Shown: one piece after another, positions 28,625 through 60,050 of the stretch | Layout of the letters: each line of letters starts with the position of its first letter | How positions within the stretch are numbered: the stretch's first letter is position 1 | Assembly: GCA_964610875.1 (NCBI GenBank) | Contig: CAZSWP010000002.1 | Location: 52,531 to 116,530 of the forward strand | DNA: 64,000 nt | Direction of reading: 5' to 3' | From: an uncultured archaeon | GTDB taxonomy: Archaea > Asgardarchaeota > Thorarchaeia > Thorarchaeales > Thorarchaeaceae | The notes under the pieces: generated by a model | Seen by the model: only the letters and a program-made list of their open reading frames with translations | Told to the model about the DNA's origin: nothing | Database searches by the model: none | Program-made: the position numbers and the translations under genes

Positions 28625-31600
28625 AGCCGTATCAAATACTATTAGCAGTAGCCGTTGTTTGTGTTGTATTGAGCCTGCAGACACCATTTGCTGGAGATAG
28701 CATGCAGGGGAGTCCTGTCGAAATTGAAGGGGACACTATGGCTGTTGCTGACCTTCTGCCATTTGAAACAGCTCTTGTATGGGAAGAGAATACAGGTTCT
28801 GAAATTGTTGATATCGTGGTTGCCAATTTTGATACTGATGCCCGTGATGAGATTGCAGTTATTACCGCAAATGGCACACTCATTGTTTTTGATGATAATA
28901 ATACCAGATTACTAGTGAAAGATTTGGAGGCGACTCCCTATGATATTGAGAGCATTGCAGCAAACGCTGGGTCAGCTCTAGAGATACTTGTTAGCACCAG
29001 CAAAGGTGCGTCTGTCTACACTACTGTTGGGACCCTAGTGACGAATGTCACACTCCCAGACGATGTTCGAGTGGCACGCGCAGCTGACTTGAATGCTGAC
29101 AACATAGACGAATTGATTCTCGGTTGTGACGACTGGAACGTGTACGCGTATTATGTCAATGGCACACAAGCGTGGATGTGGAGAAGCAATGCACCAGTAC
29201 GCTTGCTTGAAACTGCCGATGCAGATTCTGACACATTTGATGAGATATGGTGTGCTTCAACGCAAAGAAATGTTACGTATTTAGAGGAAGATGGGAATAA
29301 GACATTCTCCAAACTGGCAAGTGCGACGGTCAATGCAGTCGAGATTGCAGACCTCACAAACACCGGAAATCCTCAGCTCATTTACGGAGATGCCAATGGG
29401 AATATCCTATCCTATCTCTATCTTGACATACTGGTTGACTCTATCACCACTCCAAATGGCGTGACTGCATTATACGGTGATGATCTTATTACAGGTGGAA
29501 CACTGGAATTGGCTGTAGGCACAACCATAGGACAGGTTCGCATCTATAATAGCACCCTCGATTTGCAATGGAACAAATCAATCACTAACCAAGTTTCCAG
29601 TATCGCGATGGCAAATGTTGCTGGTTCAACGGATAGCCATGTCATAGCAACAGCAGGAAGTACTGTCACATTATTCAATGCAACCGGATATAGAATCACA
29701 GAGAGCACATTGGTTGGAACACTCACAGCCCTAGACACCGGAGACCTTGATAATAACGGGAATGCAGAATATGCCCTTGGAACCACCACAGGCCAGGTCA
29801 GCATCTATGGACTTGATGCTGACAGAGACGGCCTTGCAGATGCACGAGAAACCATTCTGGTAGGTACAGATCCCAATGACCCTGATACTGATAACGACAA
29901 TCTCGATGATGGTGAAGAGGTTCTCACATACAACACTAATCCATTGAAGGCGGATAGTGATAATGACAAGCTCTCCGACTTCGCTGAAGTTATCACACAC
30001 AACACAGACCCCAACGACCCTGATTCTGATAACGATTTGTTGACTGACTGGCAAGAGGTCTACCTCGGTACAGACCCTAATGATGCCGATAGCGATAACG
30101 ATTCTCTCACAGATTATGAGGAGAATAATGTCACAGAAACCAATCCCAATCTTGCTGACACAGATGAAGACGGAATAAATGATGCTCAAGATGACAACGA
30201 TGGCGATGGACTCACCAACTTCCAAGAAGTTCGACTCACTGAGACCGACCCCAATGAGGTTGATTCTGATAACGATGGCATAGACGATTATAATGATGAC
30301 GAAGATGCTGATGACCTCAAGAACTGGAAGGAGATATCCGTAGGCTCTGATCCACTCGACCCAGACTCTGATGATGACCAACTACTTGACGGAGCAGAGG
30401 TGAAGATACACAAGACCTCGCCGATTGACAGTGATACTGATGATGACGATCTGACAGACTATGAAGAGGTCGTGATTGTAGGTTCGGATCCAAGAAAAGC
30501 TGACACGGATGAAGACGGTCTTGATGACTATGAAGAATATTACACATATGGGACAAATGTATCAGACAGTGATACTGACCATGATGGTCTCAATGATTTT
30601 GCGGAGATAAACACCTATTCCACAAATGCCACGGACCCTGATACTGATGCAGATGGCCTGACTGATGGTGAAGAGGTTAATATCTATAGTACAGATCCCA
30701 ATTCTAATGATACTGATTTGGATGGCTTGACCGATTTTGAAGAAGTAGACACCTGGAATACAGATCCAAATCTCTCCGACACTGATGGAGATACTCTAGG
30801 TGATGGGCTAGAGGTAAACACATACTTGACCAATGCAACATCAAAGGACACAGACAATGATGGCGTGTTCGACCAGCATGAGATACAGTACTGGAATGCC
30901 ACAGTTGCAAAGAATGCAACCTTCTTCGAGGCCGGAAAATTAGACTATGATGCAGATCCAGATGGTGACAATCTGACCAACGGGGAAGAGATCTACTGGA
31001 CCAAGACAGACCCAACAAAAGATGATTCAGATCTTGATGGAATTACTGATGACGATGAGGACTCGGATTTAGATGGTCTGACGAATTTATTCGAACTCCG
31101 TACCTCATTCACGTTACCAAGAGACCCCGACAGTGATGATGATGGTCTCAAAGATGGAGATGAATGGTATATCACAGGAACTGACCCAAATGACGAAGAT
31201 AGTGATGACGACTCCATTTCAGACTATGATGAAGATTCTGATGATGATGGTCTCAGCGACGGAATTGAATTGTATATAACTCAAACCTTGACTAACGACA
31301 CTGATAGTGACAACGACTCCATATCGGATTATTATGATGATGAAGATGGGGATCAGCTACCAAACTGGTTTGAAGTTGAAATGACAGGAACTGACCCTCT
31401 CTATAATGATACGGATGATAATGGAGTCTTCGATTGGGAAGAAGACCCAGATAATGATGATCTCAACAATCTAGAAGAGCTGAATGCAGGAACTGACCCT
31501 CTAAATCCCGATTCCGACAATGATCAGCTTACAGATGGAGAAGAAGTAAATGAAGTTCTCACAGACCCCAACGATAGTGATAGCGATGACGATGGGATAC

Positions 31601-47479: not shown

Positions 47480-47553
47480 CTATTTTAGCTCAACCAATGC
47501 ATGTTTATAAGCAAAAAGACAGGAAAGCATCTCACCTGAAGGGAGTAGAGTGG

Positions 47554-48174
47554 ATGATTCAACAAGTGAGAGGAACCATAACAAACATTGAGCAGTATCC
47601 GGACTATTCAATTCTTACTGTGAAGACCGATACTGGAGACCTTGTCTTCATACGTTACTCTCAGGGTACTGTAGGCTACTCACCAATTTTGGGTGAACGT
47701 TACGAGATTAGTTACAGAGTAGTAGAGAATACACTTGTAGCATTGGAGGTCGCAAAGCCATTTACTCCCACATATTCTTCACAGAGAATGGAAGGTCCTG
47801 AATTAGTTGGAGAATTCACAGGTGCCGAGAGTGATACCGATTACGAGAGAAGAATGAGAAGTGAAGGAGTAAGACCAACAGGCATCTCATTCATTGTTGT
47901 AATCTTCATTCTAGGGGGACTATTTCTCGGTCTAATTGGCTCACTCTTTTTGCTACTACCAGCATTTTTGGGCCATATCGGAATCTTATTCGTTTCAGCT
48001 GCTGGCATTGCAGGGGTTCTATCATATGGTCTCTGGCAATACAAGTCGTGGGCACGCCTGGGTGCCATTATTGCCGGAGCCTTGATCAGCCTGACAATAG
48101 TCGGTGCAATCCTTGGAATACCGATTATCATCTATATGCTACAAGACAAAATCAAAGAACTCTACACAGAATGA
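47554..48174 (+). CDS. Membrane protein with N-terminal OB-fold-like segment
   Basis: VRGTITNIE..ILTV.. beta-rich N-terminus; 3-4 C-terminal TM helices (GLWQYKSWAR). Confidence 0.65.
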   Translation: MIQQVRGTITNIEQYPDYSILTVKTDTGDLVFIRYSQGTVGYSPILGERYEISYRVVENTLVALEVAKPFTPTYSSQRMEGPELVGEFTGAESDTDYERRMRSEGVRPTGISFIVVIFILGGLFLGLIGSLFLLLPAFLGHIGILFVSAAGIAGVLSYGLWQYKSWARLGAIIAGALISLTIVGAILGIPIIIYMLQDKIKELYTE

Positions 48175-48220
48175 TTACTGATTTTCATAGTATTCTAAGA
48201 AAAAGTCGCTCTGAAGCCAA

Positions 48221-48410
48221 GGGTTGAGGGCAGCTACAAAAATCCAGGACAAAGATGGACACGTTGTGAAGTAGCTTATATCCTTCGATACGAAATGCTA
48301 TCATAGGTCATCTCACACCTGTATGCTGACCCCACGTAGTTCCGTTCCAGTGCCGGTCTTGGACAGACAAAGCTCCGGTGTCCAGATTTGTCTAGCTCAC
48401 AATGAACGGT
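48221..48410 (+). mobile_element. ~187-bp non-coding GGT-bounded element (intergenic copy)
   Basis: Last 45 nt are 40/45 identical to 58992-59036; same left-end architecture; GGT-to-GGT spacing 186 versus 187; CTTATAT at the same offset. Confidence 0.8.
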
Positions 48411-48460
48411 AATTGGCGTTATGCGAAAAGAACTTCAATAGTTCTAGAACTGCCCAGACT

Positions 48461-49651
48461 ATGATTCGGGTAAGAGAAGCACGAAATGAAGATCGAGAGT
48501 CTGCTATTCGTGTCTTATGGAAAGCATTTGAATCCACTCAGTCATTTGAGGATATTCTCAAACAAGAATGGATTAAGAGATGGCATCAGCCGGAGGATAA
48601 TGACTGGGCATATGTTGCTGTTGACAGCGACAAAGTAGTTGCGAACCTTTGTTTCTTCAAGACTGATAGAAACATAATCAGAGGTCGGCCAATCCCTTTT
48701 GCAGGAGTCTGGGCTGTTGCAACAGACCCAGCGTATCGTAGAAAGGGTATAGTGAGAGATCTATTCCAACATGTATTCCCAATAATGAGAAACCTCGAAA
48801 TACCTCTGACAATTCTTGATCCATTCAACAGACCATTTTATGAAAAGTTTGGATATGCTTTAGCAGAGAGAAGAACCAAACATGTTTTCAAACAGAATGC
48901 ACTTAGAGCCGTGACCCCATCCGGTAGAATCACTTCTCGAGAAATCACGAATGAAAAGGATGTTGACAAAATACTTGAAGTAGAGAAAACAATGGCACGC
49001 TTTGGATCCAGATTCTTCCAATTCCGGAGAGAATATGTGAGGATGATAAAAGAGAATCACTTCTATCTCCTGGAAAAAGGACCAAAACCTGTCGGAACTG
49101 TCAAGTTCTGGTTCGATAAGGCAGAGAGAGGTTTCAAACTAATTGCAGGTATTCTTCGATATACTACTGATGAAGCACTGCCATCAATAATCGAACTAGT
49201 AAGAAACCATGGAGTAAATGCAAAAGAAATCTCATTATGGGCAGATACGGAAACTCCCGTCAGACATTTCATTGATGACATCCATAAAACGGATTCGTTC
49301 CAGATAGGCTCGATGATGATGCGTGTTATCGATTTCGAATCATATTGCAGGTCTATTTCAGTTCCAAAAGATGCCACAGAAACAGTTACTATCGAACTAA
49401 AGGACAATATGTGTGAATGGAATAATGGGGTCTATGCTATAACTCCCAACGGTGAGTCACTTGATGTAGTAAGAAATAGTAGTGATGCCGAAATAATTCT
49501 TGATGCATTGCAACTATCAAAGGTTATTGCTGGGCAAGTACCGCCCATAATGCTGGAACAGTTCAATGAGATATCATGCAGTAAAGAAACCGCACGAAAT
49601 TTGGAAGCCATATTCCCGTCCGATAATTTCGTGTCCTACTGTAGATTTTGA
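48461..49651 (+). CDS. Eis-like GNAT acetyltransferase with C-terminal SCP2-like domain
   Basis: VATDPAYRRKG, L.PF...FYEKFGY, MMRVIDF, DNMCEWNNG. Confidence 0.88.
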   Translation: MIRVREARNEDRESAIRVLWKAFESTQSFEDILKQEWIKRWHQPEDNDWAYVAVDSDKVVANLCFFKTDRNIIRGRPIPFAGVWAVATDPAYRRKGIVRDLFQHVFPIMRNLEIPLTILDPFNRPFYEKFGYALAERRTKHVFKQNALRAVTPSGRITSREITNEKDVDKILEVEKTMARFGSRFFQFRREYVRMIKENHFYLLEKGPKPVGTVKFWFDKAERGFKLIAGILRYTTDEALPSIIELVRNHGVNAKEISLWADTETPVRHFIDDIHKTDSFQIGSMMMRVIDFESYCRSISVPKDATETVTIELKDNMCEWNNGVYAITPNGESLDVVRNSSDAEIILDALQLSKVIAGQVPPIMLEQFNEISCSKETARNLEAIFPSDNFVSYCRF

Positions 49652-49725
49652 ACCTGTCAAATTATGGTTCGAGCGCTGGCAAGTCTTAATACGAACCAAT
49701 GCTTTGGTTACTGCGACTGTTTAGA

Positions 49726-50262
49726 ATGAGTGAACATGCAATGGCACATCAAGATGATATGATACCGAAAGAAGAAGCAGAGAAGGGCACTAAGGGGGCA
49801 TTATCAAGACTTGCTCTACTCCATCTCTCCTATGCAAAGATATTGGTAGATGCGTTTGGTGAAGAAAAGGGCAAGGACATGATTGCCAAAGCGATAATTG
49901 ACTATGGACAGCGGATACATGAACGGGTTGAAAAAGGATTGCCAGACTTACCGAGTTTTGGCCTATATGATGATTATGGCATAAATGAAGAGGGGAAACA
50001 GTTTGCACACGGTTGCACATTAGCAAAGGTGTTCAAAGAACAGAATGCACTCGACCTTGGTCACATGTATTGTTATGTAGATGCTGCAAAGATGATGGCT
50101 ATGGAACTTGGTGGAAAAACGATTCATGAAAAATGTGAAGCATGTGGTGATGATGAGTGCATTCTGGTTATAGTACAGACTACAGAGGAAGAACGAGAAG
50201 CTTTTGCTAATAAAACAGGAGATTGGAGAGAGGTCGATCCCAGGCTCTTTAAATTCAAATAG
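49726..50262 (+). CDS. ATC-hydrolase-like (L-2-amino-thiazoline-4-carboxylate hydrolase family) protein
   Basis: FGEEKG...I.KAI..YG, C.LAK.F......LG..YCYVD, GDDEC. Confidence 0.7.
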   Translation: MSEHAMAHQDDMIPKEEAEKGTKGALSRLALLHLSYAKILVDAFGEEKGKDMIAKAIIDYGQRIHERVEKGLPDLPSFGLYDDYGINEEGKQFAHGCTLAKVFKEQNALDLGHMYCYVDAAKMMAMELGGKTIHEKCEACGDDECILVIVQTTEEEREAFANKTGDWREVDPRLFKFK

Positions 50263-50401
50263 ATGTAAGACCAACCATTCAATTGCCACATCTATTAGCA
50301 AGATTCACCTTCAAGAATTGAAGTACTCGATTGAGAATTCTTATATTAATTCAGGAAGTAATCAAGACAAGAAGTCAATTCTTAGGAGTTTCGTATTGCC
50401 C

Positions 50402-50632
50402 ATGAAAGAGATAATACTGGAGAAGCTCCTCACCTCTTTCTTTATTCTTTCCTACGCCTTCTCTTGGATAATCCGGATTCCATTACTCATCGTATATTTT
50501 CAAGATCCAGTTTCATTCCAAATGTCGTCGTTTCTACTCATTGGATTCTTGTGGTTGTCGTCATTCTCATTTTTGGAAAAGAATGATTATCTAGGAAACC
50601 CGATATTGATGAGGTGCATTAAAAAGGAATGA
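50402..50632 (+). pseudogene. Possible remnant of a CPBP/Abi membrane protease N-terminus
   Basis: LTSFFILSYAFSWIIRIPLL resembles CPBP TM1; no EExxxR catalytic region follows. Confidence 0.3.
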
Positions 50633-50653
50633 CTAATTGCAGATGAGATTGCT

Positions 50654-51313
50654 ATGACATCAGAAGATGCTTCCAATCAAAATACAACTGATAACAATGA
50701 GGACACAAGTCTTCTTCGTCGCTTGGAGGAAGAGCTTGTTCTCACAGGCCGCTATAAGATAGCCAGGCTCTATGTCACCGAAGAGGTCTTTGATGCAATA
50801 TTACCTATTTTGGGTATCATCTTAGCCGGGTACATCGCAGCACATATGCAGGAACTGTTTATTGTATTTGAGACAACGCTTCTTGCGGCAGTGGGAGCTA
50901 GCATCGCCCACCTCATCTCAGGAATGTCAGGCACATATCTTGTAGAGCATGCAGAAGGAAAACAATTGATTGAGGAGATGATGAAATCTAAAGACGCGCA
51001 CTTGAGTCGTTCTATAATCATCACCGCAGAACATGAAACGACAATGCTTCTTTCAATACTTAAGGGAGCAGTCCCTGCCGGGAGTGTGATACTGGTCATA
51101 AGCCCGATGTTCTTTGCCTTATTTGGTCTCATCGATTATATCCGCTCATTCATTCTTTCGGCAATGATTGGTCTGGGAATTCTGTTCCTTCTCGGTGTGT
51201 TCCTTGGCAAGATCTCAAAGACAAATGTCTGGGTAAGCGGTCTCAAGACACTCTTTGCAGGCCTTTTAATGTGCTCCATTCTGATTGTAATCTCTCTGCT
51301 GACAGGCGCTTGA
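50654..51313 (+). CDS. VIT1/CCC1-like membrane protein (TIGR00267-like)
   Basis: R.YV....FDAIL..LGII, ISG.SGTYL.E.AE, LFLLGVFLGKISK.N...SG. Confidence 0.8.
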   Translation: MTSEDASNQNTTDNNEDTSLLRRLEEELVLTGRYKIARLYVTEEVFDAILPILGIILAGYIAAHMQELFIVFETTLLAAVGASIAHLISGMSGTYLVEHAEGKQLIEEMMKSKDAHLSRSIIITAEHETTMLLSILKGAVPAGSVILVISPMFFALFGLIDYIRSFILSAMIGLGILFLLGVFLGKISKTNVWVSGLKTLFAGLLMCSILIVISLLTGA

Positions 51314-51396
51314 TGCATGGATTATTAGATTGATTCATCGTTGAAAACAGAATAAATTCCGAAATAACACCTCAATGTTTGGTAAGCGTAGCTACG

Positions 51397-51456
51397 TTTG
51401 ATATTTATCAAAATACTTATAAGCAAATACAGCTATGTTTGATATATGTCAAACAT
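51397..51456 (+). promoter_or_regulatory. TATA box flanked by two palindromic operators
   Basis: TTTGATATTTATCAAA (51397-51412), CTTATAAG (51416-51423), ATGTTTGATATATGTCAAACAT (51435-51456). Confidence 0.7.
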
Positions 51457-51497
51457 CAAGCGTTCGGCGCTTGCGACTCGATAAGGTGTTAACAACA

Positions 51498-52415
51498 ATG
51501 TCAACCAACCAACCCACAACCGACTTCAATACTATCTTTGAAGACCTCAAGACAAGTGTCAAGCTGGCAAAGGATAACATTCTGAGTTATGCTCTTGCCC
51601 ACATCGGCATGGGTTTTGCACTCATCTTCATACTAGCAATAGTTGCGATTCCGGTGTTAGCTTTTGTAATCTTATCAGGACCAGTTATCTGGACTTCGAT
51701 TGCAGATATCGTGATGGCTGGACCTGATTCTAGCAGGTTCTTACTTGGTGGCGCGTTTGGCCTTCTGTTTGTTCCATTCTTTGCTGTCGTTTACACATTG
51801 AACGGCGCACTCTTTGGAATGAGCAAGGAGGTCATAGAGCAGGGTAAGACCAAGGCTGAAACTTCATTCTCATTTCTATCTGGCAAGTTCCTCCCATTGA
51901 TGGGTGCAGGCATTCTCCTCACACTGATCATTATTGCACCACAGGCACTTGTCTGGTACGTGGTATCATACCTGAACGGATGGACTATTCCTCTTCTCTA
52001 CTCCCAGATACTGATTGTATTCACATATGTCTACTCTAACATAACTTCCGGATTCTGCGCTATGGTACTACCAGCCATCGTGAATGGAGCTGGCGTCCAA
52101 GATGCATTCAAGGAATCATTCCGCCTAGCCATTGATAGATTCGATAGAGTCTTTGGTGTCTTAATCGGCATTAACATTGTATTCTTTGCGCTCTTTGGAC
52201 CAATAATGGTACTCGGTCTCCTAGTCCCATTTGCCTGGTCTACCCTAGTCCTCGCACCTGCAGTAGCAGTGATTGCACTATGGACGGTCATCGCAGTGAT
52301 CTTGACTGGTCTACTCTTCATTCCAGCAGCATACATTGTCTGGATGAAGGTCTACCATGAGTTGACTGGCAAACCAGTCTATGAAGGTGAACCAGTCGAG
52401 GTACCGATGGTCTGA
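51498..52415 (+). CDS. Polytopic membrane protein (paralog of the next gene)
   Basis: About 6 TM segments; shares ED.K.S.K.A..NILS..LA.IG, GALFGM..E..E.G.T.A, PAI..G, FDRV with the next ORF. Confidence 0.8.
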   Translation: MSTNQPTTDFNTIFEDLKTSVKLAKDNILSYALAHIGMGFALIFILAIVAIPVLAFVILSGPVIWTSIADIVMAGPDSSRFLLGGAFGLLFVPFFAVVYTLNGALFGMSKEVIEQGKTKAETSFSFLSGKFLPLMGAGILLTLIIIAPQALVWYVVSYLNGWTIPLLYSQILIVFTYVYSNITSGFCAMVLPAIVNGAGVQDAFKESFRLAIDRFDRVFGVLIGINIVFFALFGPIMVLGLLVPFAWSTLVLAPAVAVIALWTVIAVILTGLLFIPAAYIVWMKVYHELTGKPVYEGEPVEVPMV

Positions 52416-52489
52416 AATACCACCACCACCTGAGAGTGTCACTGTCGGAAGACGGGGGCACTCTCAAACCCCTCTTTATGGTGAACAAA

Positions 52490-53419
52490 ATGTCGATGAA
52501 AAGTACCAACATGAGAGTTCTGCTGGAAGACGTAAAGGTCAGCTTCAAGTTTGCTGTGAAAAATATTCTCTCTTTCATTCTTGCAATGATAGGCGTAGCG
52601 ATTGTTACAGTAATACTGATTCTAGTAGTAGCAGCAATTATCGTACCAATATTCATAGCTGTGCTTGGATTCCCCGGAATGATCGAGCTCTTTACTCAAT
52701 GGGCAGTAACTTTTGAAACAGCAACGGGACTTGCAATAGTTGGAATGTCTATCTTATTCATTACACCTTTTGCAGCACCATTCATGGCTTCATTTGGAGC
52801 CCTCTTTGGAATGGCCCGTGAGATTGTGGAAAGTGAAGGAACACACGCTTCAGGAGTGTTCACTTGGTACAAGAACAAGTTTCTCTCTCTTCTCGGAGGA
52901 GGAGTTATCCAATTCCTTGTGGCAATTTTACCAATTGCAGTTGTAGTAGCTATAGTAGCACCGTTTAGTATAAGTTTCACAACCACAGACCTCTATCACG
53001 GTATTGCTTTCCTTGTTGTGATTATTGTCTATTGGACCATTGCAATGGGAGCATTATCAATGATTTTTCCAGCAATAATTGACGGTAATTCGGTCATCGA
53101 CTCACTGAAGATTTCAATTACCTATAGTAAGAACTACTTCGACCGCGTCTATTCTGTCTGGATAGCATTCATCGGAATAATAGTTGCCTTACTTATTCCG
53201 ATTATCGCAGCACCAATGAATCTATTCATGACTGGAACCAACTTTATCCCCGGAGCTGCATGGGGACTCTATACAGCAATTACGATGATTATGATGATAA
53301 TAGTCGTGTTCCCTGCAATGGTAATTGGAATGTCGAGAATCTATCTGATTCTATCAGGTGAAGAAATACTGGTTCAAGAAGAAACACATCCAGACATCAG
53401 CTTTGTTGGGGGTATCTAA
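52490..53419 (+). CDS. Polytopic membrane protein (paralog of the previous gene)
   Basis: Same motifs as the previous ORF; GGTGA RBS precedes ATG 52490. Confidence 0.8.
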   Translation: MSMKSTNMRVLLEDVKVSFKFAVKNILSFILAMIGVAIVTVILILVVAAIIVPIFIAVLGFPGMIELFTQWAVTFETATGLAIVGMSILFITPFAAPFMASFGALFGMAREIVESEGTHASGVFTWYKNKFLSLLGGGVIQFLVAILPIAVVVAIVAPFSISFTTTDLYHGIAFLVVIIVYWTIAMGALSMIFPAIIDGNSVIDSLKISITYSKNYFDRVYSVWIAFIGIIVALLIPIIAAPMNLFMTGTNFIPGAAWGLYTAITMIMMIIVVFPAMVIGMSRIYLILSGEEILVQEETHPDISFVGGI

Positions 53420-53422
53420 CAG

Positions 53423-54061
53423 GTGGCAATAGAAAGCAAAGTCGAGCCCATGAAGGACCTTGAAATCATCTCGGATCCTAAGACCATCAAGGTCTTGTTT
53501 GAGTCAACCCGGGCTGCGATTGTATTCAAATATCTAATAAATGGCTCAATGACTGTCAAGCAATTGGCAGATGCATTAGATAAGAATCCTGGTACGATAC
53601 TACATCACATTGACAAGCTGAAAGCCGCTGGTCTCGTGGTGCAAGAACGTACCGAAGCTACACGAACTGGTATTGTACAACGATACTACCGTGCCTCGGC
53701 ACGAGAATATCGTTTGGGTATCAGTGGAATGATGCAGACTGATGGTGGAGTGGCTCAGTTTGCTAAGAATCGTCTGATCTCCATGATAAATAGTCTGTCC
53801 GTCTATGGAATTGAGATTCCTGAATCTCAGATGGATGAAGCAATGGAGCTACTCAGGCAGTTAATTGAGAGGGAAAATACAGTGAGCTCAAGTCTTCCGA
53901 TATTAGATGAAGTGAAGTATCATACGTTGTCACCCTCAGTACGTAACGATGCGTCGCGGATCATGCGTCGATATGCACTCGAAAACGATTCGCAATACCA
54001 GGAACTACGCTCACAGTGGCACGAGTTCCTGAATCGCTATAACAAAGGTGTATCTAACTAA
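53423..54061 (+). CDS. ArsR-like winged-helix transcriptional regulator
   Basis: MTVKQLADAL.K.PGTILHHI.KL..AGLV....T..G.VQRYY. Confidence 0.88.
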   Translation: MAIESKVEPMKDLEIISDPKTIKVLFESTRAAIVFKYLINGSMTVKQLADALDKNPGTILHHIDKLKAAGLVVQERTEATRTGIVQRYYRASAREYRLGISGMMQTDGGVAQFAKNRLISMINSLSVYGIEIPESQMDEAMELLRQLIERENTVSSSLPILDEVKYHTLSPSVRNDASRIMRRYALENDSQYQELRSQWHEFLNRYNKGVSN

Positions 54062-54864
54062 TGAGTAATTATGAACGTAACAATACAATGGTTGCATGTA
54101 TCATCGCCGCTATTATAGTAGGCGCAGTTGGCGTAGGATCTATTGCAATGTTGGGCATAAACAATTGGGCACCCACATGGAACCTCGGTGATTGGAACCC
54201 TGGTGATTGGAACATTGGAGAATGGGAAAACACTACAACCTATGAGTTCTCAAGAACCGAATCATCGATGCCAGATGAAGTTGCAATAGGACTAGAGATT
54301 TCGACAGGGGGCTTTGATATTATCTTCACTGATGACCCCGATCTCGTTTATGAGATTGCCATGGTTGTGCCTAATAGAACTGTTGAACAACACGGCGTAC
54401 CGACTGTGAACTACGTTGATGAAACTGTCACACTGGCTTACACAACAGCACTAGTGAACGTGACTCTTGGAAATGGTACAATTTATGCACTTGACATTGA
54501 TACGACCACCGGAGGAGTATCACTAGTTCTATCATCACCAGGTCAAGTTTCAGACGTTGACGTTGATGTCACTACTGGTGGCATTGAATGTGTCATTACC
54601 GACGACGTGGTCTTTGATGGCAATGTCAGTATAGACCTCACTGCGACTACTGGTGGTATAGACCTCACTGTAGGTCTTCCAACAGGCATTGGAGGAAGGT
54701 TAACAACAAGTGTGAGTACCGGCCCTGTTGATGTGACCACCACGACATGGACAGAAGTAACAGTTGACGAAGTTTATGAAACTTCGGACTATGATACTGC
54801 CACACAAGTAGTACAAATAGCGGCAAGCACCACTACTGGTGGTATTCAAGCAGTCTTGTCCTAG
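54061..54864 (+). CDS. Membrane-anchored DUF4097/adhesin-like beta-repeat protein
   Basis: N-terminal TM, WN(L/P/I)GDW repeats, repeated TTGGI/V beta-turn motifs. Confidence 0.7.
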   Translation: MSNYERNNTMVACIIAAIIVGAVGVGSIAMLGINNWAPTWNLGDWNPGDWNIGEWENTTTYEFSRTESSMPDEVAIGLEISTGGFDIIFTDDPDLVYEIAMVVPNRTVEQHGVPTVNYVDETVTLAYTTALVNVTLGNGTIYALDIDTTTGGVSLVLSSPGQVSDVDVDVTTGGIECVITDDVVFDGNVSIDLTATTGGIDLTVGLPTGIGGRLTTSVSTGPVDVTTTTWTEVTVDEVYETSDYDTATQVVQIAASTTTGGIQAVLS

Positions 54865-54873
54865 AAGTACACA

Positions 54874-54906
54874 GTGGAGGATGGTTCCTCCACATCTCTC
54901 TTTTTT
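54874..54906 (+). terminator. Hairpin plus T-tract terminator
   Basis: GTGGAGGA-TGGT-TCCTCCAC followed by TCTCTCTTTTTT, between convergent genes. Confidence 0.7.
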
Positions 54907-54923
54907 AATACACAACAATCGAA

Positions 54924-56705
54924 CTAGATTGTCTTCTTTAGTTCAGATAGCAATCTATCAGCCTGTTTTGGTCCAAGTTCCCAGAATTGTGGATCAGTCA
55001 AGTCATGACCAAATTCTGCAATTTGTTCACGAGGACTTTTACTTCCACCACTACTAAGGAGTTTCTTAAACCGTAGATTGAAATCACCCTCTCCACTCTT
55101 GTACTCTTCATAGATCGCATATACCAGCATCTGTGCGAACGAGTAGGGATAATTATAGAACCTATAGTTTGCAAAGAAGAAGTGGGGTATCCGAGCCCAC
55201 TCATATTCCATGCATTCAGACCACTCTACTGCATCGCCGAATATCCGGTCTCTACTCTTTCTCCAGAGGTCACAGGCTATTTCAGAATCGATGTGATCCC
55301 CACGTTCTATGACTTTGTATAGCTCCTTCTCAAATAGAGCTCTCATTCCTACGTAGTAGACAGTGTAGTAGAAGTCACCAAGTGTGTGAGAGAGTACTTC
55401 AAATCGTTGTTCGTCATTCTCTGACATTCCTAGCATCTTATCTGTTAGGAGTAATTCACCAAATATACTACCGGTTTCTGCCATACACATCCCTGCAGAA
55501 TAGTTCAAGGGTGTCTGAGAGTTGTATATTAGATGACCCTGAGCTGCATGCCCATTCTCATGCGCCAAAGTGAAAACATCGCCAAGCGTTTCTGCATAAG
55601 TCATCATAATGAAGGATTTCTTGGCACTAGGCCAACCTGCACAAAATGCAGTGTTTGCCTTTCCAACTCTGGATAAGGCATCAATTCGGGAGTCTTCAAA
55701 CATGCTCTTTACAACCATTCCCATTTCTTCATCAAAGGATGCAAAGGAATCAATTACGATCTTTCTAGCATCAGCATACTTGAAACTCCACACAGACTCT
55801 GCCACCCATGGTGCTATTACATCAGATCCTTTGAGTTTTTCAAGATCCATGTATTTAGCTTTTAATTTGAGGAAATCTTGGTATATCTTCGATGTGGATT
55901 CAATTGCTTCTAGAAGGGATTCAATTGTAGCCTCGTCAACATCCTGAGCAAGTAGACTTTGGGTCATTGTTGAGGGCATTCCCCGCCTTTCTGTCATTTC
56001 AACGTGATCAGCGCAGATTCCATGAAGTGCTGTAGCGTGAATCAGTTTAGCATCGGAGTAGCTTTTGTAGAGTGTTCTTGAGGCCATTTCCCGGACCGGT
56101 CGTTTTGTGTCCTGCCTCATCGAACTCAACACTGGAAGAGGTACTTCTCTTTTCTCCCCATCCACTTCAATTTCAAAGACTCGGGAAGAAACCCAAGACT
56201 CTTGGAGTTTTGATAGAAGAGATATTCCATTGACATCTTTCGCTGCAATAAGTCGTTCTTCAACCTCTGAAAGGCGATATGGAGCGGATTTCCTAATCTT
56301 CTCAAGGTAATGCTGGTAATTACTTAGTTTTGAGTCATTGATTAGTTCAGGTCGTTCAAGTAAGACCTCACCTAACTTGATGCTGAAAACAGTGTTGGCT
56401 GCACTGATTCTGCTAGCTGCTTTGTCAGCCCAACTTTTCAACTGTGCATTCTCTTTGTCGGTAGTTCCTACAGTATAACGTAGATTGCAATAAGATAAAA
56501 CATCTCTCACTTCTACATTCAGTTTTTCATGCTCTTGGAGTATCTTAGCAAGGTCTTCTGATGATATAGATGCCAACTGTTTGATATCATGTTGAAGCTT
56601 TTCTTCGACTTCCTTGGAAAAATACACAAGTTTCTCTTTGACCTCTGGTGCCGAGATTCCTTGCACCATAGGAGCAACATTCCATTCCATTTCACCTTGA
56701 CTCAT
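54924..56705 (-). CDS. pepF: M3B oligoendopeptidase F
   Basis: IDA..R.GK..TAFC, TLAHENGHAAQ, AETGSIFGE, WARIPHF...FYNYPYSF. Confidence 0.9.
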   Translation of the reverse strand: MSQGEMEWNVAPMVQGISAPEVKEKLVYFSKEVEEKLQHDIKQLASISSEDLAKILQEHEKLNVEVRDVLSYCNLRYTVGTTDKENAQLKSWADKAASRISAANTVFSIKLGEVLLERPELINDSKLSNYQHYLEKIRKSAPYRLSEVEERLIAAKDVNGISLLSKLQESWVSSRVFEIEVDGEKREVPLPVLSSMRQDTKRPVREMASRTLYKSYSDAKLIHATALHGICADHVEMTERRGMPSTMTQSLLAQDVDEATIESLLEAIESTSKIYQDFLKLKAKYMDLEKLKGSDVIAPWVAESVWSFKYADARKIVIDSFASFDEEMGMVVKSMFEDSRIDALSRVGKANTAFCAGWPSAKKSFIMMTYAETLGDVFTLAHENGHAAQGHLIYNSQTPLNYSAGMCMAETGSIFGELLLTDKMLGMSENDEQRFEVLSHTLGDFYYTVYYVGMRALFEKELYKVIERGDHIDSEIACDLWRKSRDRIFGDAVEWSECMEYEWARIPHFFFANYRFYNYPYSFAQMLVYAIYEEYKSGEGDFNLRFKKLLSSGGSKSPREQIAEFGHDLTDPQFWELGPKQADRLLSELKKTI

Positions 56706-56876
56706 TGTAATGACCTGTTTCTCGGCAAAATCTCAATATGTTAAAAGGGCTCTCTTTGTTACAAGAACGTGGTTTGATATTTCATCTAATCTATATTGAT
56801 GGATTCGTCTAGGATTCAGCAATAGAATTTACCAGACAGCGTGAGTTATAACGAAACCAATTTTTGATGAAACAGG

Positions 56877-57530
56877 ATGAAAGCCAGCAAATCAGACCTT
56901 CATGTACATACAACTTATTCGGATGGTCTCTCTTCAGTACGAGAAGTTATCGAACGAGCAGCCACCATGAATTTGGACGCAATAGCGTTGACCGATCATT
57001 TCTGGCCATCAATAGGAAGTAGAAGGGGAGGAGCTGGGTTAATTGAGGAACGGAGAAGAGAAATCAACGAGCTCCGTGCCGCATATCCGAATCTGAGAAT
57101 CCTTGACGGAGCAGAAGTTGACCTCTACACAGATGGTTCTCATGCTCCTGTTTCGGGAGGATTGGATCAATTTGATATCATAATTGGTTCATTTCATCTT
57201 AGATGTGATTCAACACAGTGGGCACATGGAATCGAATCTGTGCTGAATAATCTCCATTTTGATATTCTAGGACACTGGGATGGTTATTTGTCGTACTATA
57301 GACAAGAGGATGGAGAGAGAGTTGCACAACTTCTAGCAGAAAAGAATGTAGCAATAGAGATCAGTCATAGATATCCAACTGAACACATAAGATTCCTGGA
57401 AGCAGCTAGAGATGCTGGATGTAAATTCACTTTAGGAAGTGATGCTCATCATGTTTCATCTGTTGGGGACCTCTCAGTTGAGCTAAGTGAAGCTAAAGCT
57501 CTTGGTCTTACTTTGCTTGACATAGCGTGA
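56877..57530 (+). CDS. PHP-domain phosphoesterase
   Basis: DLHVHTTYSDG, ALTDH, GAEVD, GSFH, ILGH, GSDAH. Confidence 0.9.
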   Translation: MKASKSDLHVHTTYSDGLSSVREVIERAATMNLDAIALTDHFWPSIGSRRGGAGLIEERRREINELRAAYPNLRILDGAEVDLYTDGSHAPVSGGLDQFDIIIGSFHLRCDSTQWAHGIESVLNNLHFDILGHWDGYLSYYRQEDGERVAQLLAEKNVAIEISHRYPTEHIRFLEAARDAGCKFTLGSDAHHVSSVGDLSVELSEAKALGLTLLDIA

Positions 57531-57609
57531 GATGGATGACATAGTGGAGCTGCATACCATAATTGAAACTGACAGTACACTATCTGCTATTGAGTCACTG
57601 GTCCGTTGC

Positions 57610-57656
57610 GGACGCGTTCTAGGATTGTCCAGCTTTTTGGCAGTTGTTAACAACCC
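57610..57656 (-). mobile_element. Isolated left end of the GGT-bounded element
   Basis: Minus strand GGGTT-GTTAA-CAACT-GCCAAAAAGCTGGACA-ATCCTAGA has exactly the spacing of the left ends at 48221 and 58846. Confidence 0.55.
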
Positions 57657-57739
57657 TTTTCTCCTTGAGAGATTCTCACTGCTATGTCTAACAAACCATC
57701 AACAATTTCATCGAGTAGGTTTGATTCATCATCGGACAT
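57647..57739 (-). CDS. 30-aa small ORF (MSDDESNLLDEIVDGLLDIAVRISQGEKGC), possibly truncated by the element
   Basis: Amphipathic acidic helix; its stop lies inside the element left end. Confidence 0.35.
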   Translation of the reverse strand: MSDDESNLLDEIVDGLLDIAVRISQGEKGC

Positions 57740-57849
57740 TGATCATTTAAATGACTAATACTGGACAAAAGTAATTCTCAGGACGTATGATTTTTGTGTA
57801 TTAATCTATCATTATTGACATTGTATAAGAAAAAAAGGAGTCCAGTGAG

Positions 57850-58263
57850 ATGGAAAAGCACTTGATTTTTTCTGAGGAGTGGTTGTGTTCGTATAAGGAA
57901 TTACTCGATGTTAATGAGCGGTACAAAGAGGTGGCAAGCGATTGGGAAGGAGATTTCATCTTTGAAATAACTCCAGATTATGATTCCATAGAAGAACCAA
58001 TTCGGCTTTATATCGACCTCTGGCATGGACGGATTAGAGATATCTGGGTTGCTAAGGGGGATGAAAAACCAGATTTTGTATATTCAGGGTTTCTTGAGAA
58101 TTGGAAGAAACTGATCGCGAAGAAAATCGGTCCCATAAGAGCCCTAATGTCAAGAAAATTCAAGCTTCAAGGGTCGTATAGTAAAGTGGTCAGATATATA
58201 GCAGCGGCACAAGAACTTGTTGACACTGCAGCAAGAGTTCCGACAAGGTTCCCTGACGAGTAA
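57850..58263 (+). CDS. SCP2 sterol/lipid-binding domain protein
   Basis: F.SEEW, WEGDFIFEI, IDLWHG, NWKKL, ALMSRKFKLQG. Confidence 0.88.
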   Translation: MEKHLIFSEEWLCSYKELLDVNERYKEVASDWEGDFIFEITPDYDSIEEPIRLYIDLWHGRIRDIWVAKGDEKPDFVYSGFLENWKKLIAKKIGPIRALMSRKFKLQGSYSKVVRYIAAAQELVDTAARVPTRFPDE

Positions 58264-58341
58264 GTTTCTTTCAGACATCCAGAAGGCTTTTCTCTCACGG
58301 AGTCCACTGAAGTCAAGTAATTCAAAAGGAGAAAATCGGAG

Positions 58342-58761
58342 ATGAGTGATAAACTAGTTTTTCCTTCGCCCGAATGGATAGCAAAATATTCAGAATTGTT
58401 GAATGATAATGATGATTACAAAGACGCCGCCAAGACATGGGAAGGCGATTTTGTCTTTGAGGTTGAAGCAGACGGAAAAGTGGTAAAAGAACCAATTAGA
58501 TTCTATCTAGACCTCTGGCATGGAGATTGCCGTGAAGCCAGAATGGCAACGCCAGATGATAATCCTGAATTCATCTACAAAGGACCTTACAAGAATTGGA
58601 AATTGTTACTTGATGGAAAGATAGACCCGATAAAAGGCCTGATGTCTCGTAAGTTTGCACTAGGTCAAGGGGATATGGGGAAGATTATGCGTGCGACGAA
58701 GGCTGCAGCCGAACTTGTAGCCACAGCAGCAAAAGTACCAACCAAATTTCTGGACGAATAG
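58342..58761 (+). CDS. SCP2 sterol/lipid-binding domain protein (tandem paralog)
   Basis: FPSPEW, WEGDFVFEV, LDLWHG.C, GKIDPIKGLM..KF.L..GDM..IMR. Confidence 0.9.
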   Translation: MSDKLVFPSPEWIAKYSELLNDNDDYKDAAKTWEGDFVFEVEADGKVVKEPIRFYLDLWHGDCREARMATPDDNPEFIYKGPYKNWKLLLDGKIDPIKGLMSRKFALGQGDMGKIMRATKAAAELVATAAKVPTKFLDE

Positions 58762-58777
58762 AACTGAGTTAAGCAAA

Positions 58778-60050
58778 ATGGCACAGTTAGACACAGAACT
58801 ACTTGATATCTTAGATATTGAACATCCCATTATTCAGGGTGGAATGGGTTTCGTACAGCTCCCAGAATTCCAGACAGACCTAGACATCAGTGTATAGGCA
58901 CTTATATACTCCTGACAAGAACAACTTGGTGAGGGTGTATTGACACACGAACGTGCTCTCACAAAGCCATTCCCAGTACCGCTCCTGGGAGGACAATGCT
59001 CTGGTGTCCAGAATTGTCCAGCTTACAATGAACGGTCCATACAAGACAGAATCGTTGGCAATAGCAGTAGCTAATGCAGGAGCCCTTGGAGCCATCAGTA
59101 GTATAGGGATGGCTGCGACTCTACTTCCTGAAGCTGCTCCAATAGACGCACAGAGATTATTTGGAGATGACCCACCCATAATCATCCTTGAGAAATCAAT
59201 CGAAGCTGTAACTAAAGGAGTGAAAGGAAGGGGAGGAATATTTGGAGTCAATGTGCCTGTCGCATCGGAGTTCATTCTTGCCTCAGAAATGTTCGTTAAA
59301 CAGACTATAGAGTCAATTCAATCGGATTCGGATATTGAACGGAGTCTAAGGGTTCTTATCACGTCTGCAGGAAATCCTACACCATGGAGCAAAGTCAAGA
59401 AATATGGATTGATTTGGATTCATGTTGTGCCATCAGTATATCATGCGAAAAAAGCCGAAAAAGCAGGGGCGGACATAATCGTCGCATCTGGACATGAAGG
59501 TGGTGCGCATATTTCATGGGACCCTGTCCATTCAATGGTATTGGTACCAGCAGTTGCCAAAGCTGTTGATGTTCCAGTGGTTGCGGCAGGGGGATTTTGT
59601 GATGGTGCGACTCTCGCCGCAGCACTTTGCCTTGGAGCTGTTGGAGTACAGATGGGAACTAGATTCATTGCAACACAAGAGAGTGACTTTGAACCCATTT
59701 GGAAGGAAGCCATCCTGAAAAGAGAGGAGAGGGAAACACTTGCTGGTAGAGGTCTCTTTGGACCTATGAGATTTGTCAGAAATAAAAGAGCTGAACAAAT
59801 TGTTGAGAAAACGTTGGAAGATGTCCCAAGATTCTATCTCGGGGAACCTGTCGAATCTAATGAAGCTATTTTGAATCTTGAGAGAGAAGGATTTGATGAC
59901 CTAATTGATGCCAAGGATGAAACAGCCTTGATGTTTGGTGGAGAATGTGTAGGTAGAATTACTGATTTACCAACTGTACAAAATCTTGTTGAAAGCATCA
60001 TTTCCGAGGCTTCTTTCGTTTTACAATCCATGCCCAAGCATGTAAAATGA
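58778..60050 (+). pseudogene. Nitronate monooxygenase/FabK-family flavoprotein interrupted by a 187-bp insertion
   Basis: MAQLDTELLDILDIEHPIIQGGMG (58778-58849) and PYKTESLAIAVANAGALG... (59037-60050) join in frame to give 361 aa; GHEGGAH, AAGGF.DG, GVQMGTRF are intact. Confidence 0.85.
58846..59036 (+). mobile_element. ~187-bp non-coding GGT-bounded element inserted in the NMO/FabK gene
   Basis: GGT at 58847-49 and 59034-36; imperfect subterminal inverted repeats; homologous to 48221-48410. Confidence 0.85.

Follow-up and report, generated by a model that had tools for sequence, protein, structure and literature searches.

Protein-free mini-elements of an Asgard archaeon, probable derivatives of IS607-family transposons with a predicted TnpB guide-RNA scaffold

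Introduction

Two elements of about 190 nt, each with conserved ends and a TATA-like box around a core that differs between them, lie in a 64,000-nt stretch of DNA from an archaeon of the Thorarchaeales (the window; C2:52531-116530 in a source assembly of 124 contigs and 3.75 Mb). Where no contig is named, coordinates are positions in the window. What are these elements, what moves them, and what is the core for? A reading of this DNA from its letters alone (the sequence-only reading) had proposed a guide-RNA cassette or a site-specific recombination element, and each half of that proposal holds in part: the elements appear to depend on a serine recombinase and to carry a guide-RNA scaffold behind the TATA-like box, though the recombinase family that had been suggested was wrong. 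The two copies are:

48221-48410, + strand: copy A, a mini-element, compared end to end with copy B
58846-59036, + strand: copy B, a complete mini-element of subfamily 14 (from clustering of the genome copies)

Results

A large family of mini-elements

Copies A and B are co-linear in the window and align end to end. A recount upheld the figures by which the pair had been recognised, namely a GGT-to-GGT span of 186 versus 187 nt, a CTTATAT at offsets 54 and 55, and 40 identities in the last 45 nt. The genome-wide search for the right end that had been advised revealed a family: about 60 right ends that read ...TTACAATGAACGGT, and 40 complete elements of 181-221 nt in 16 clusters or subfamilies. 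A covariance model, R1, built on 21 mini-elements and one TnpB-linked copy, has 56 matches in the source genome. The mini-element family is real and large, and its copy number is far above chance.

Subfamilies 1, 9, 14 and 15 comprise three to seven copies each, 98-100% identical and at unrelated sites, which points to recent bursts of movement. The insertion of copy B is recent, because the five genome copies of subfamily 14 are 99-100% identical. Copy A is a singleton that departs from the family consensus (UCACAC for UGACAC, CGUAG for CGGAG, CCGG for CCGU); it is probably old and, changed at conserved positions, may be dead. R1 scores best in the genome at C3:140494-140602 and C14:9447-9555, but neither site has the usual GGGTT..CAGCT left end at ~190 nt, and their left ends may be variant or truncated. 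For annotation, the family accounts for dozens of repeats that had no annotation in these related genomes, and for the splitting of at least one gene. Elsewhere in the window, a very long run of repeats with a 69-nt period (29866-34925), encoding Asp-rich units of the D-x-D-x-D-G type (TDPNDPDTDNDxLxDGEE), is apparently one giant calcium-binding-repeat protein gene.

Target site and boundaries

The sole conserved flank signal among the 40 copies is an A or T and then a G before the common GGT. The left junction is G-GGT in all 40, partly through the choice of left ends, and the base before it is A or T in 34; the AwGGGT that had been picked out at both empty sites is thus a real target motif in the form WGGGT. 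The right end reads ...AACGG-T, and the flanks of near-identical mini-elements have nothing in common beyond WGGGT. Insertion is at WGGG(T), with GG(T) in common and no other duplication. A GG core at both junctions, a loose target and no target-site duplication are marks of the IS607 family. The hairpins that had been described at the empty sites are chance, since a stem of at least 4 bp occurs in 30% of the reconstructed sites versus 35.5% of random WGGGT sites.

Copy B cuts a gene, and orthologue comparison gives the two parts as:

58778-58849, + strand: first 24 codons of an NMO/FabK-like gene, MAQLDTELLDILDIEHPIIQGGMG, cut by copy B
59037-60050, + strand: rest of the NMO gene (PYKTESLAIAV...)

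In eight intact NMO orthologues, ...QGGMGPYKTE... is uninterrupted, and for two orthologues the junction DNA, GGAATGGGTCCATACAAGACAGA, equals the reconstructed empty site of copy B; together, the orthologue reading and the DNA identity fix the boundaries of copy B and show that there is no duplication beyond the core. This NMO copy is broken, because the 187-nt insert shifts the frame, and an intact paralogue, 75% identical, is found at C3:18250-19245. Just upstream of the split gene, two adjacent ORFs of ~138 aa each (57850-58263 and 58342-58761) have a common 41-nt stretch that is 83% identical and are likely tandem paralogues. Logan contigs from three DNA runs of one microbial-mat study, compared with 47500-59800, contained no joint that skips copy A or B, at low coverage and with short contigs.

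After removal of the elements in silico, 19 of the 40 sites fall in an open frame of at least 120 aa, versus 91% of random GGGT sites, a deficit consistent with selection against genic insertions. The elements have different tips (GGGTTG... versus ...GAACGGT), inverted motifs that are only subterminal (GGACA/TGTCC), and no duplication beyond the common GGT. They are not classical DDE-type MITEs, and on this point the sequence-only reading was right.

A full-length IS607-type element on another contig

The window indeed encodes no recombinase, as had been remarked, and the parent-type element lies on another contig, C18. The parents that had been named for it (IS110/IS1111, IS481/IS3 or an element with a tyrosine recombinase) give way to an IS607-type transposon, with the serine recombinase TnpA and with TnpB. 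Two small serine recombinases and several TnpB-family proteins are encoded in the source genome, and at C18:16148-24729 a left end, tnpA, a gene on the opposite strand, tnpB and a right end follow one another in that order. The left end, GGGTTTGATAACAGCTACATGAAACCCAGACAAACCTAGACA..., is ~90% identical over 40 nt to mini-elements of subfamily 3; the right end is ...TGTCTAGGTTACAATCAACGGT, and the right ~105 nt of the mini-elements align with the 3' end of tnpB plus this right end. TnpA, encoded at C18:16218-16838, scores 175.5 bits against the NCBIfam IS607 transposase model NF033518 (cut-off 110) and has Pfam Resolvase and HTH_17/MerR domains; its best solved relative is the ISC1926 TnpA (PDB, 3.4e-26). 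Such a small serine recombinase with an N-terminal MerR-like HTH, in a relative with the same ends, is again what defines an IS607 element. The TnpB-family protein of 731 aa, encoded at C18:22509-24704, matches PF07282 and has the RuvC D/E/D motifs and the zinc finger; a sequence search with it among solved structures yielded none.

Sequence comparison nevertheless indicates that the mini-elements do not descend directly from the C18 element, which diverges from them in the segment that separates the stem-2 hairpin from the right-end repeats, with ATCAACGGT instead of ATGAACGGT. Further, closer full-length IS607-type copies have probably been collapsed in the assembly or are missing from it at contig ends. 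The TATA-like box of the full element is only ~20 nt before the tnpA ATG, so that the label of tnpA promoter is uncertain for it.

The opposite-strand gene between tnpA and tnpB (C18:16819-22335, - strand) encodes 1838 aa. A second copy of this ~1800-aa gene, 38% identical over 1479 aa, lies in a diverged IS607-type element (L037:872-5593, - strand), and in several other genomes the gap from tnpA to tnpB, ~5-6 kb, is enough for such a gene. The gene has no Pfam match; a LEVKTKT motif and weak atlas leads (scores of at most 0.82) hint at an Mrr-like nuclease plus a STAND-type NTPase. Four contig ends (C35:38689-38742, C39:33342-33395, C86:1-54 and C35:9-62) coincide exactly with right ends of the ATCAACGGT type, which on C18 is the one linked to TnpB.

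With the homology, the structure described below, the target motif and the insertion boundaries established, we are highly confident that copies A and B are non-autonomous, protein-free derivatives of IS607-family transposons.

Anatomy and predicted RNA structure

A mini-element retains four parts of the full element: ~50 nt of left end, the TATA-like box, the last ~105 nt and the right terminus ...ACAATGAACGGT. The last ~105 nt, which in full-length copies overlap the 3' end of tnpB, comprise a conserved predicted RNA with two stems and possibly a pseudoknot. In copy A the parts are:

48221-48224, + strand: left junction GGGT, a host G plus the GGT common to the right end, containing the predicted GG core of the serine-recombinase crossover (flank logo of 40 copies; empty site established for copy B)
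48221-48268, + strand: left end, GGGTT-N5-CAGCT, with CAGCT at 48231-48235 (22-sequence alignment; homology to the C18:16148 left end that precedes tnpA)
48247-48251 and 48257-48261, + strand: two direct GGACA repeats of the left end (mirrored by TGTCC/TGTCT in the right end)
48276-48281, + strand: TATA-like box TTATAT, ~30 nt upstream of stem 1 (alignment; homology of its segment to the bases directly before the tnpA start)
48295-48306, + strand: relic of the tnpA start, ATGCTATCATAG versus ATGTTCTCAGTAG in the full element, which shows where the interior was deleted (comparison with the full element)
48306-48331, + strand: stem-loop 1, GGTCA ... TGACC (helix 1, with both-side changes at 4 of 7 pairs)
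48335-48377, + strand: stem 2, with outer helix CGTAG/CTCCG and inner hairpin TTCCAG/CTTGGA, loop GTGCCGGT (helices 2-4; covarying also in TnpB-linked copies)
48377-48410, + strand: right end, GGTGTCC and then inverted repeats TGTCC (48379-48383) and TGTCT (48389-48393) (motif coordinates)
48399-48410, + strand: right terminus ACAATGAACGGT, end of the predicted omega-RNA scaffold (...ACGG-T)
48411-48430, + strand: predicted guide segment, the host DNA directly 3' of the right end (by analogy with TnpB omega RNA architecture)

The GGACA-type repeats of the left end and their right-end mirrors are presumed TnpA binding sites, and the TATA-like box is the presumed promoter of the RNA. In 21 of the 22 aligned sequences the spacing from box to stem 1 is constant, the exception, subfamily 11, having a sizeable deletion; subfamily 1 has a 30-nt indel upstream of the box. 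The relic of the tnpA start is kept in mini-elements of subfamilies 2 and 3, copy A included (TACGAAATGCTATCATAG versus TACGAAAGACCATGTTCTCAGTAG). An open frame begins 3 nt after copy A.

The central ~60 nt had been described as unalignable yet stem-forming. The stem is borne out, whereas the segment does align once 22 representatives are compared, with compensatory changes, and the covariance model that had been recommended as a check describes the core as a covarying two-stem RNA. Stem-loop 1, of the GGTCA/TGACC type, has a loop with a conserved UGACAC; the second stem consists of an outer helix of the CGGAG/CUCCG type and an inner hairpin of the UCCAG/CUGGA type. Over the 22 rows of the alignment, 86.7% of the cells are paired and both-side changes occur at 10 pairs; its covariation score was reached by none of 500 shuffles, and slid controls pair at 29-46%. 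TnpB-linked copies, in an alignment that was fitted to the model, show both-side changes at 17 of 19 pairs and are 84% paired versus 60% in shuffles, a covariation-backed secondary structure of the kind that marks a TnpB omega RNA. In copy A the loop of stem-loop 1 reads TCACAC, where the family version TGACAC is able to pair with the downstream GGTGTC, and one pair of the outer helix of stem 2 (CGGAG in the family) is broken.

Two long-range pairings, UGACAC with GGUGUC and the hairpin loop ACCGU with the terminal ACGGU, are possible pseudoknots; both are weakly supported because their sequences hardly vary, and the ACCGU/ACGGU pairing shows just one compensatory change and is mismatched in 5 of the 22 aligned sequences. 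Part of the covariation among mini-elements could be a legacy of several full-length parents instead of having been maintained in the mini-elements. Rfam gave no match at gathering score in the window and no relevant match at E up to 10 on four loci, and its covariance models for RAGATH-18, other curated RNA families and the known IS607 reRNA family found nothing.

The scaffold in other genomes

Of 36 other genomes of the same family, 25 have R1 sites, as against none of 24 genomes from outside; homologues of the large TnpB are encoded in 24 of 40 family genomes. At 25 of 27 TnpB loci from other genomes, R1 straddles the 3' end of the TnpB ORF on the strand of the gene; judged by this alignment, its position across the tnpB 3' end is the position of an omega RNA. 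A scaffold laid over the 3' end of tnpB and ending at the right boundary is the architecture by which a TnpB omega RNA is known. In other genomes, at least 12 loci have TnpA upstream of TnpB (0-6.5 kb), co-directional and on the same contig. Gene-less units of ~190 nt with the GGGT..CAGCT left end are found in many other genera of the family.

Discussion

Alternative explanations

Could the mini-elements be cut-down IS110 elements with a bridge RNA? An IS110-family recombinase gene (PF01548 + PF02371), split over the ends of C2 and C15, is indeed flanked by sequence identical to a subfamily 1 mini-element. The junctions, however, speak for the reverse: the first 196 nt of the subfamily 1 mini-element are exactly C2:158416-158611 and its last 27 nt exactly the C15 end, and the overlap is just AA, so that the IS110 element must have inserted inside the mini-element at GGTGTCC-AA-GTTTGT. 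The left end of the IS110 element itself contains GGTGTCCAA, which spans left target and core, and ACAAACTTG, the reverse complement of core and right target, as expected there of a bridge RNA, whose guides match left target plus core and core plus right target (PMC11208160). Moreover, IS110 involvement is confined to subfamily 1, and near-identical mini-elements have flanks alike only in WGGGT, versus the 11-14-nt targets of bridge RNAs (PMC11208160). The sole IS110 is a later insertion nested in one mini-element subfamily, with its own AA core, and mini-element flanks are unrelated within subfamilies; we reject this reading and leave it a minimal probability. The IS110 element (C2:158612-159104 joined to C15:77757-76684, outside the window) has a higher G+C and parts the mini-element scaffold from its right end, and ten such GGTGTCC-AA-GTTTGT sites exist in the genome. 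Its left end (L023:295-418) carries a C/D-box-like AUGAUGA ... CUGA ... CUGA, where Rfam snoRNA matches at E ~8, far below threshold, are probably chance.

Three other explanations were considered. TnpA might simply move the mini-elements by their ends, the RNA-like interior and TATA-like box being inherited baggage that is functionless in them. Broken pairs in copy A and other singleton subfamilies are what such an inert MITE would show, the right half partly overlaps the presumed TnpA-binding repeats and would be kept regardless, and the covariation could be older than the deletions. At the same time, the ~190-nt unit with box and scaffold at fixed spacing persists across many genera and subfamilies, compensatory changes distinguish mini-element subfamilies, and indels are placed upstream of the box and just once between box and stem 1; on balance we regard an inert MITE as unlikely. 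It is very improbable that the unit is a mobile promoter or regulatory small-RNA element kept for control of the gene downstream of its right end: the promoter-like box is directed outward through that end and copy A stops 3 nt short of an open frame, but an ORF start lies within 300 nt downstream in 15 of 40 copies and on the mirror side in 14 of 40, an absence of orientation bias, and several copies interrupt genes. Copy B, on the sense strand of an otherwise intact gene, also raises the thought of a small intron excised at the RNA level, and removal of 187 nt does restore the NMO reading frame exactly. We give this next to no credence, as Rfam intron families have no match, copies in open frames are about half at most and on either strand, the elements have recombinase-type ends and a DNA-level parent, and loss of the split NMO copy is tolerable with the C3 paralogue intact.

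A model for the mini-elements

Overall, we believe that the mini-elements are probably best explained, mechanism included, as IS607-derived elements with a guide scaffold. Transcription, TnpB loading and cleavage we infer from homology and from the IS605/IS607 literature (PMC10055086; 10.1101/2023.11.20.567912). Consider, for example, a single mini-element. The TnpA serine recombinase, acting in trans, would excise it as a circle and insert it at WGGG(T), with crossover at the GG dinucleotide. From the internal promoter, a transcript would then run through the scaffold and the right end into host DNA and would serve as a TnpB omega RNA, with the copy's own 3' flank as guide. TnpB, also in trans and from a gene that is intact in the genome, could cut emptied sites beside WGGG, and such cutting would favour retention of the mini-element. 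Of trans-acting guide function in particular, which is argued by analogy, we would say that the balance tips slightly in its favour.

The guide had earlier been sought in the variable core, and the failure of the core to match its own flanks had been counted against the idea. TnpB omega RNAs take as guide the ~16-20 nt of DNA that follow the right end on its 3' side (PMC10055086; 10.1101/2023.11.20.567912), and so the predicted guide of a mini-element would be the host DNA just 3' of its right end; a guide outside the core would explain why the core has no match to the flanks. Inspection by eye, likewise, found no consistent complementarity or covariation of loop 1 or the stem-2 loops with left-end positions 6-10 or the flanks (covariation between core and target flanks had been put forward as a check), and the loops differ even between subfamilies whose left end is the same.

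A wider picture is attractive, although we hold it tentatively and at a little less than an even chance: the mini-elements may form an old lineage that sustains itself, one of stand-alone guide-RNA genes with their own promoters, parasitic on TnpA for movement and on TnpB for homing or retention, in which each copy programs TnpB against its own vacant site, the ~190-nt unit having been kept by at least 10 genera within a single Asgard family, and in which the mini-elements are themselves targeted by an IS110 bridge RNA. If so, RNA-guided mobile DNA would be nested three layers deep in one genome. Provided that the RNAs are made and loaded, the ~55 copies would each be a natural, separately promoted TnpB guide, and the family would be a handy system for trans-acting omega RNAs, TAM choice (WGGG), self/non-self discrimination (ACGG) and a large, uncharacterised archaeal TnpB.

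Relation to known systems

The mini-elements are a new archaeal variant of known selfish DNA, not a new system. Our literature search found no natural IS607-derived mini-elements, only a laboratory mini-IS for IS607, and no such elements in Asgard archaea. Serine-recombinase (IS607) transposons, and archaeal ones, appear to have given rise to guide-RNA-only hitch-hikers too, which had so far been described for the IS605 PATEs; the archaeal forms have an internal promoter-like box and persist long across genera.

With IS110/IS621 (PMC11208160) the mini-elements have in common a structured non-coding RNA in a transposon end and a short core common to donor and target; unlike IS110/IS621, they show no 11-14-nt specificity in their flanks and have ends that are not IS110 ends, and the IS110 of this genome is separate from them and targets them. 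The closest systems are IS607-family transposons with TnpB and an omega RNA, among them IS607, IS1535, ISC1926 and the best studied, CboIStron of Clostridium botulinum (IS607), in which TnpA targets TGGG with a strict GG core, the TnpB TAM is TGGG, and the scaffold ends in UCGG, whose C at -3 differs from the TAM (10.1101/2023.11.20.567912). The Asgard parent-type element likewise has a serine-recombinase TnpA with a MerR-type HTH, a GG core without target duplication, a loose TGGG-like target with a predicted TAM role, and a guide-RNA scaffold at the tnpB 3' end that reaches up to the right boundary; scaffold end and TAM again differ at -3, ACGG versus WGGG in the mini-elements as UCGG versus TGGG in CboIStron. 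Unlike CboIStron, the archaeal elements have no group I intron and a large TnpB (731 aa), their full-length forms often carry the ~1800-aa gene between tnpA and tnpB, and they include natural, protein-free copies of ~190 nt with an internal archaeal-type promoter box, whereas the published mini-IS is a laboratory construct. The IS200/IS605 PATEs are gene-less too, and encode omega RNAs that TnpB uses in trans (Meers et al., PMC10055086); by analogy, the mini-elements are gene-less units with the ends of autonomous relatives and a retained scaffold that would depend on the TnpA and TnpB of other copies. A Y1 (HUH) transposase, which recognises hairpin ends, mobilises PATEs as single strands (PMC10055086), whereas the mini-elements have serine-recombinase ends, a GG core and, apparently, a promoter of their own.
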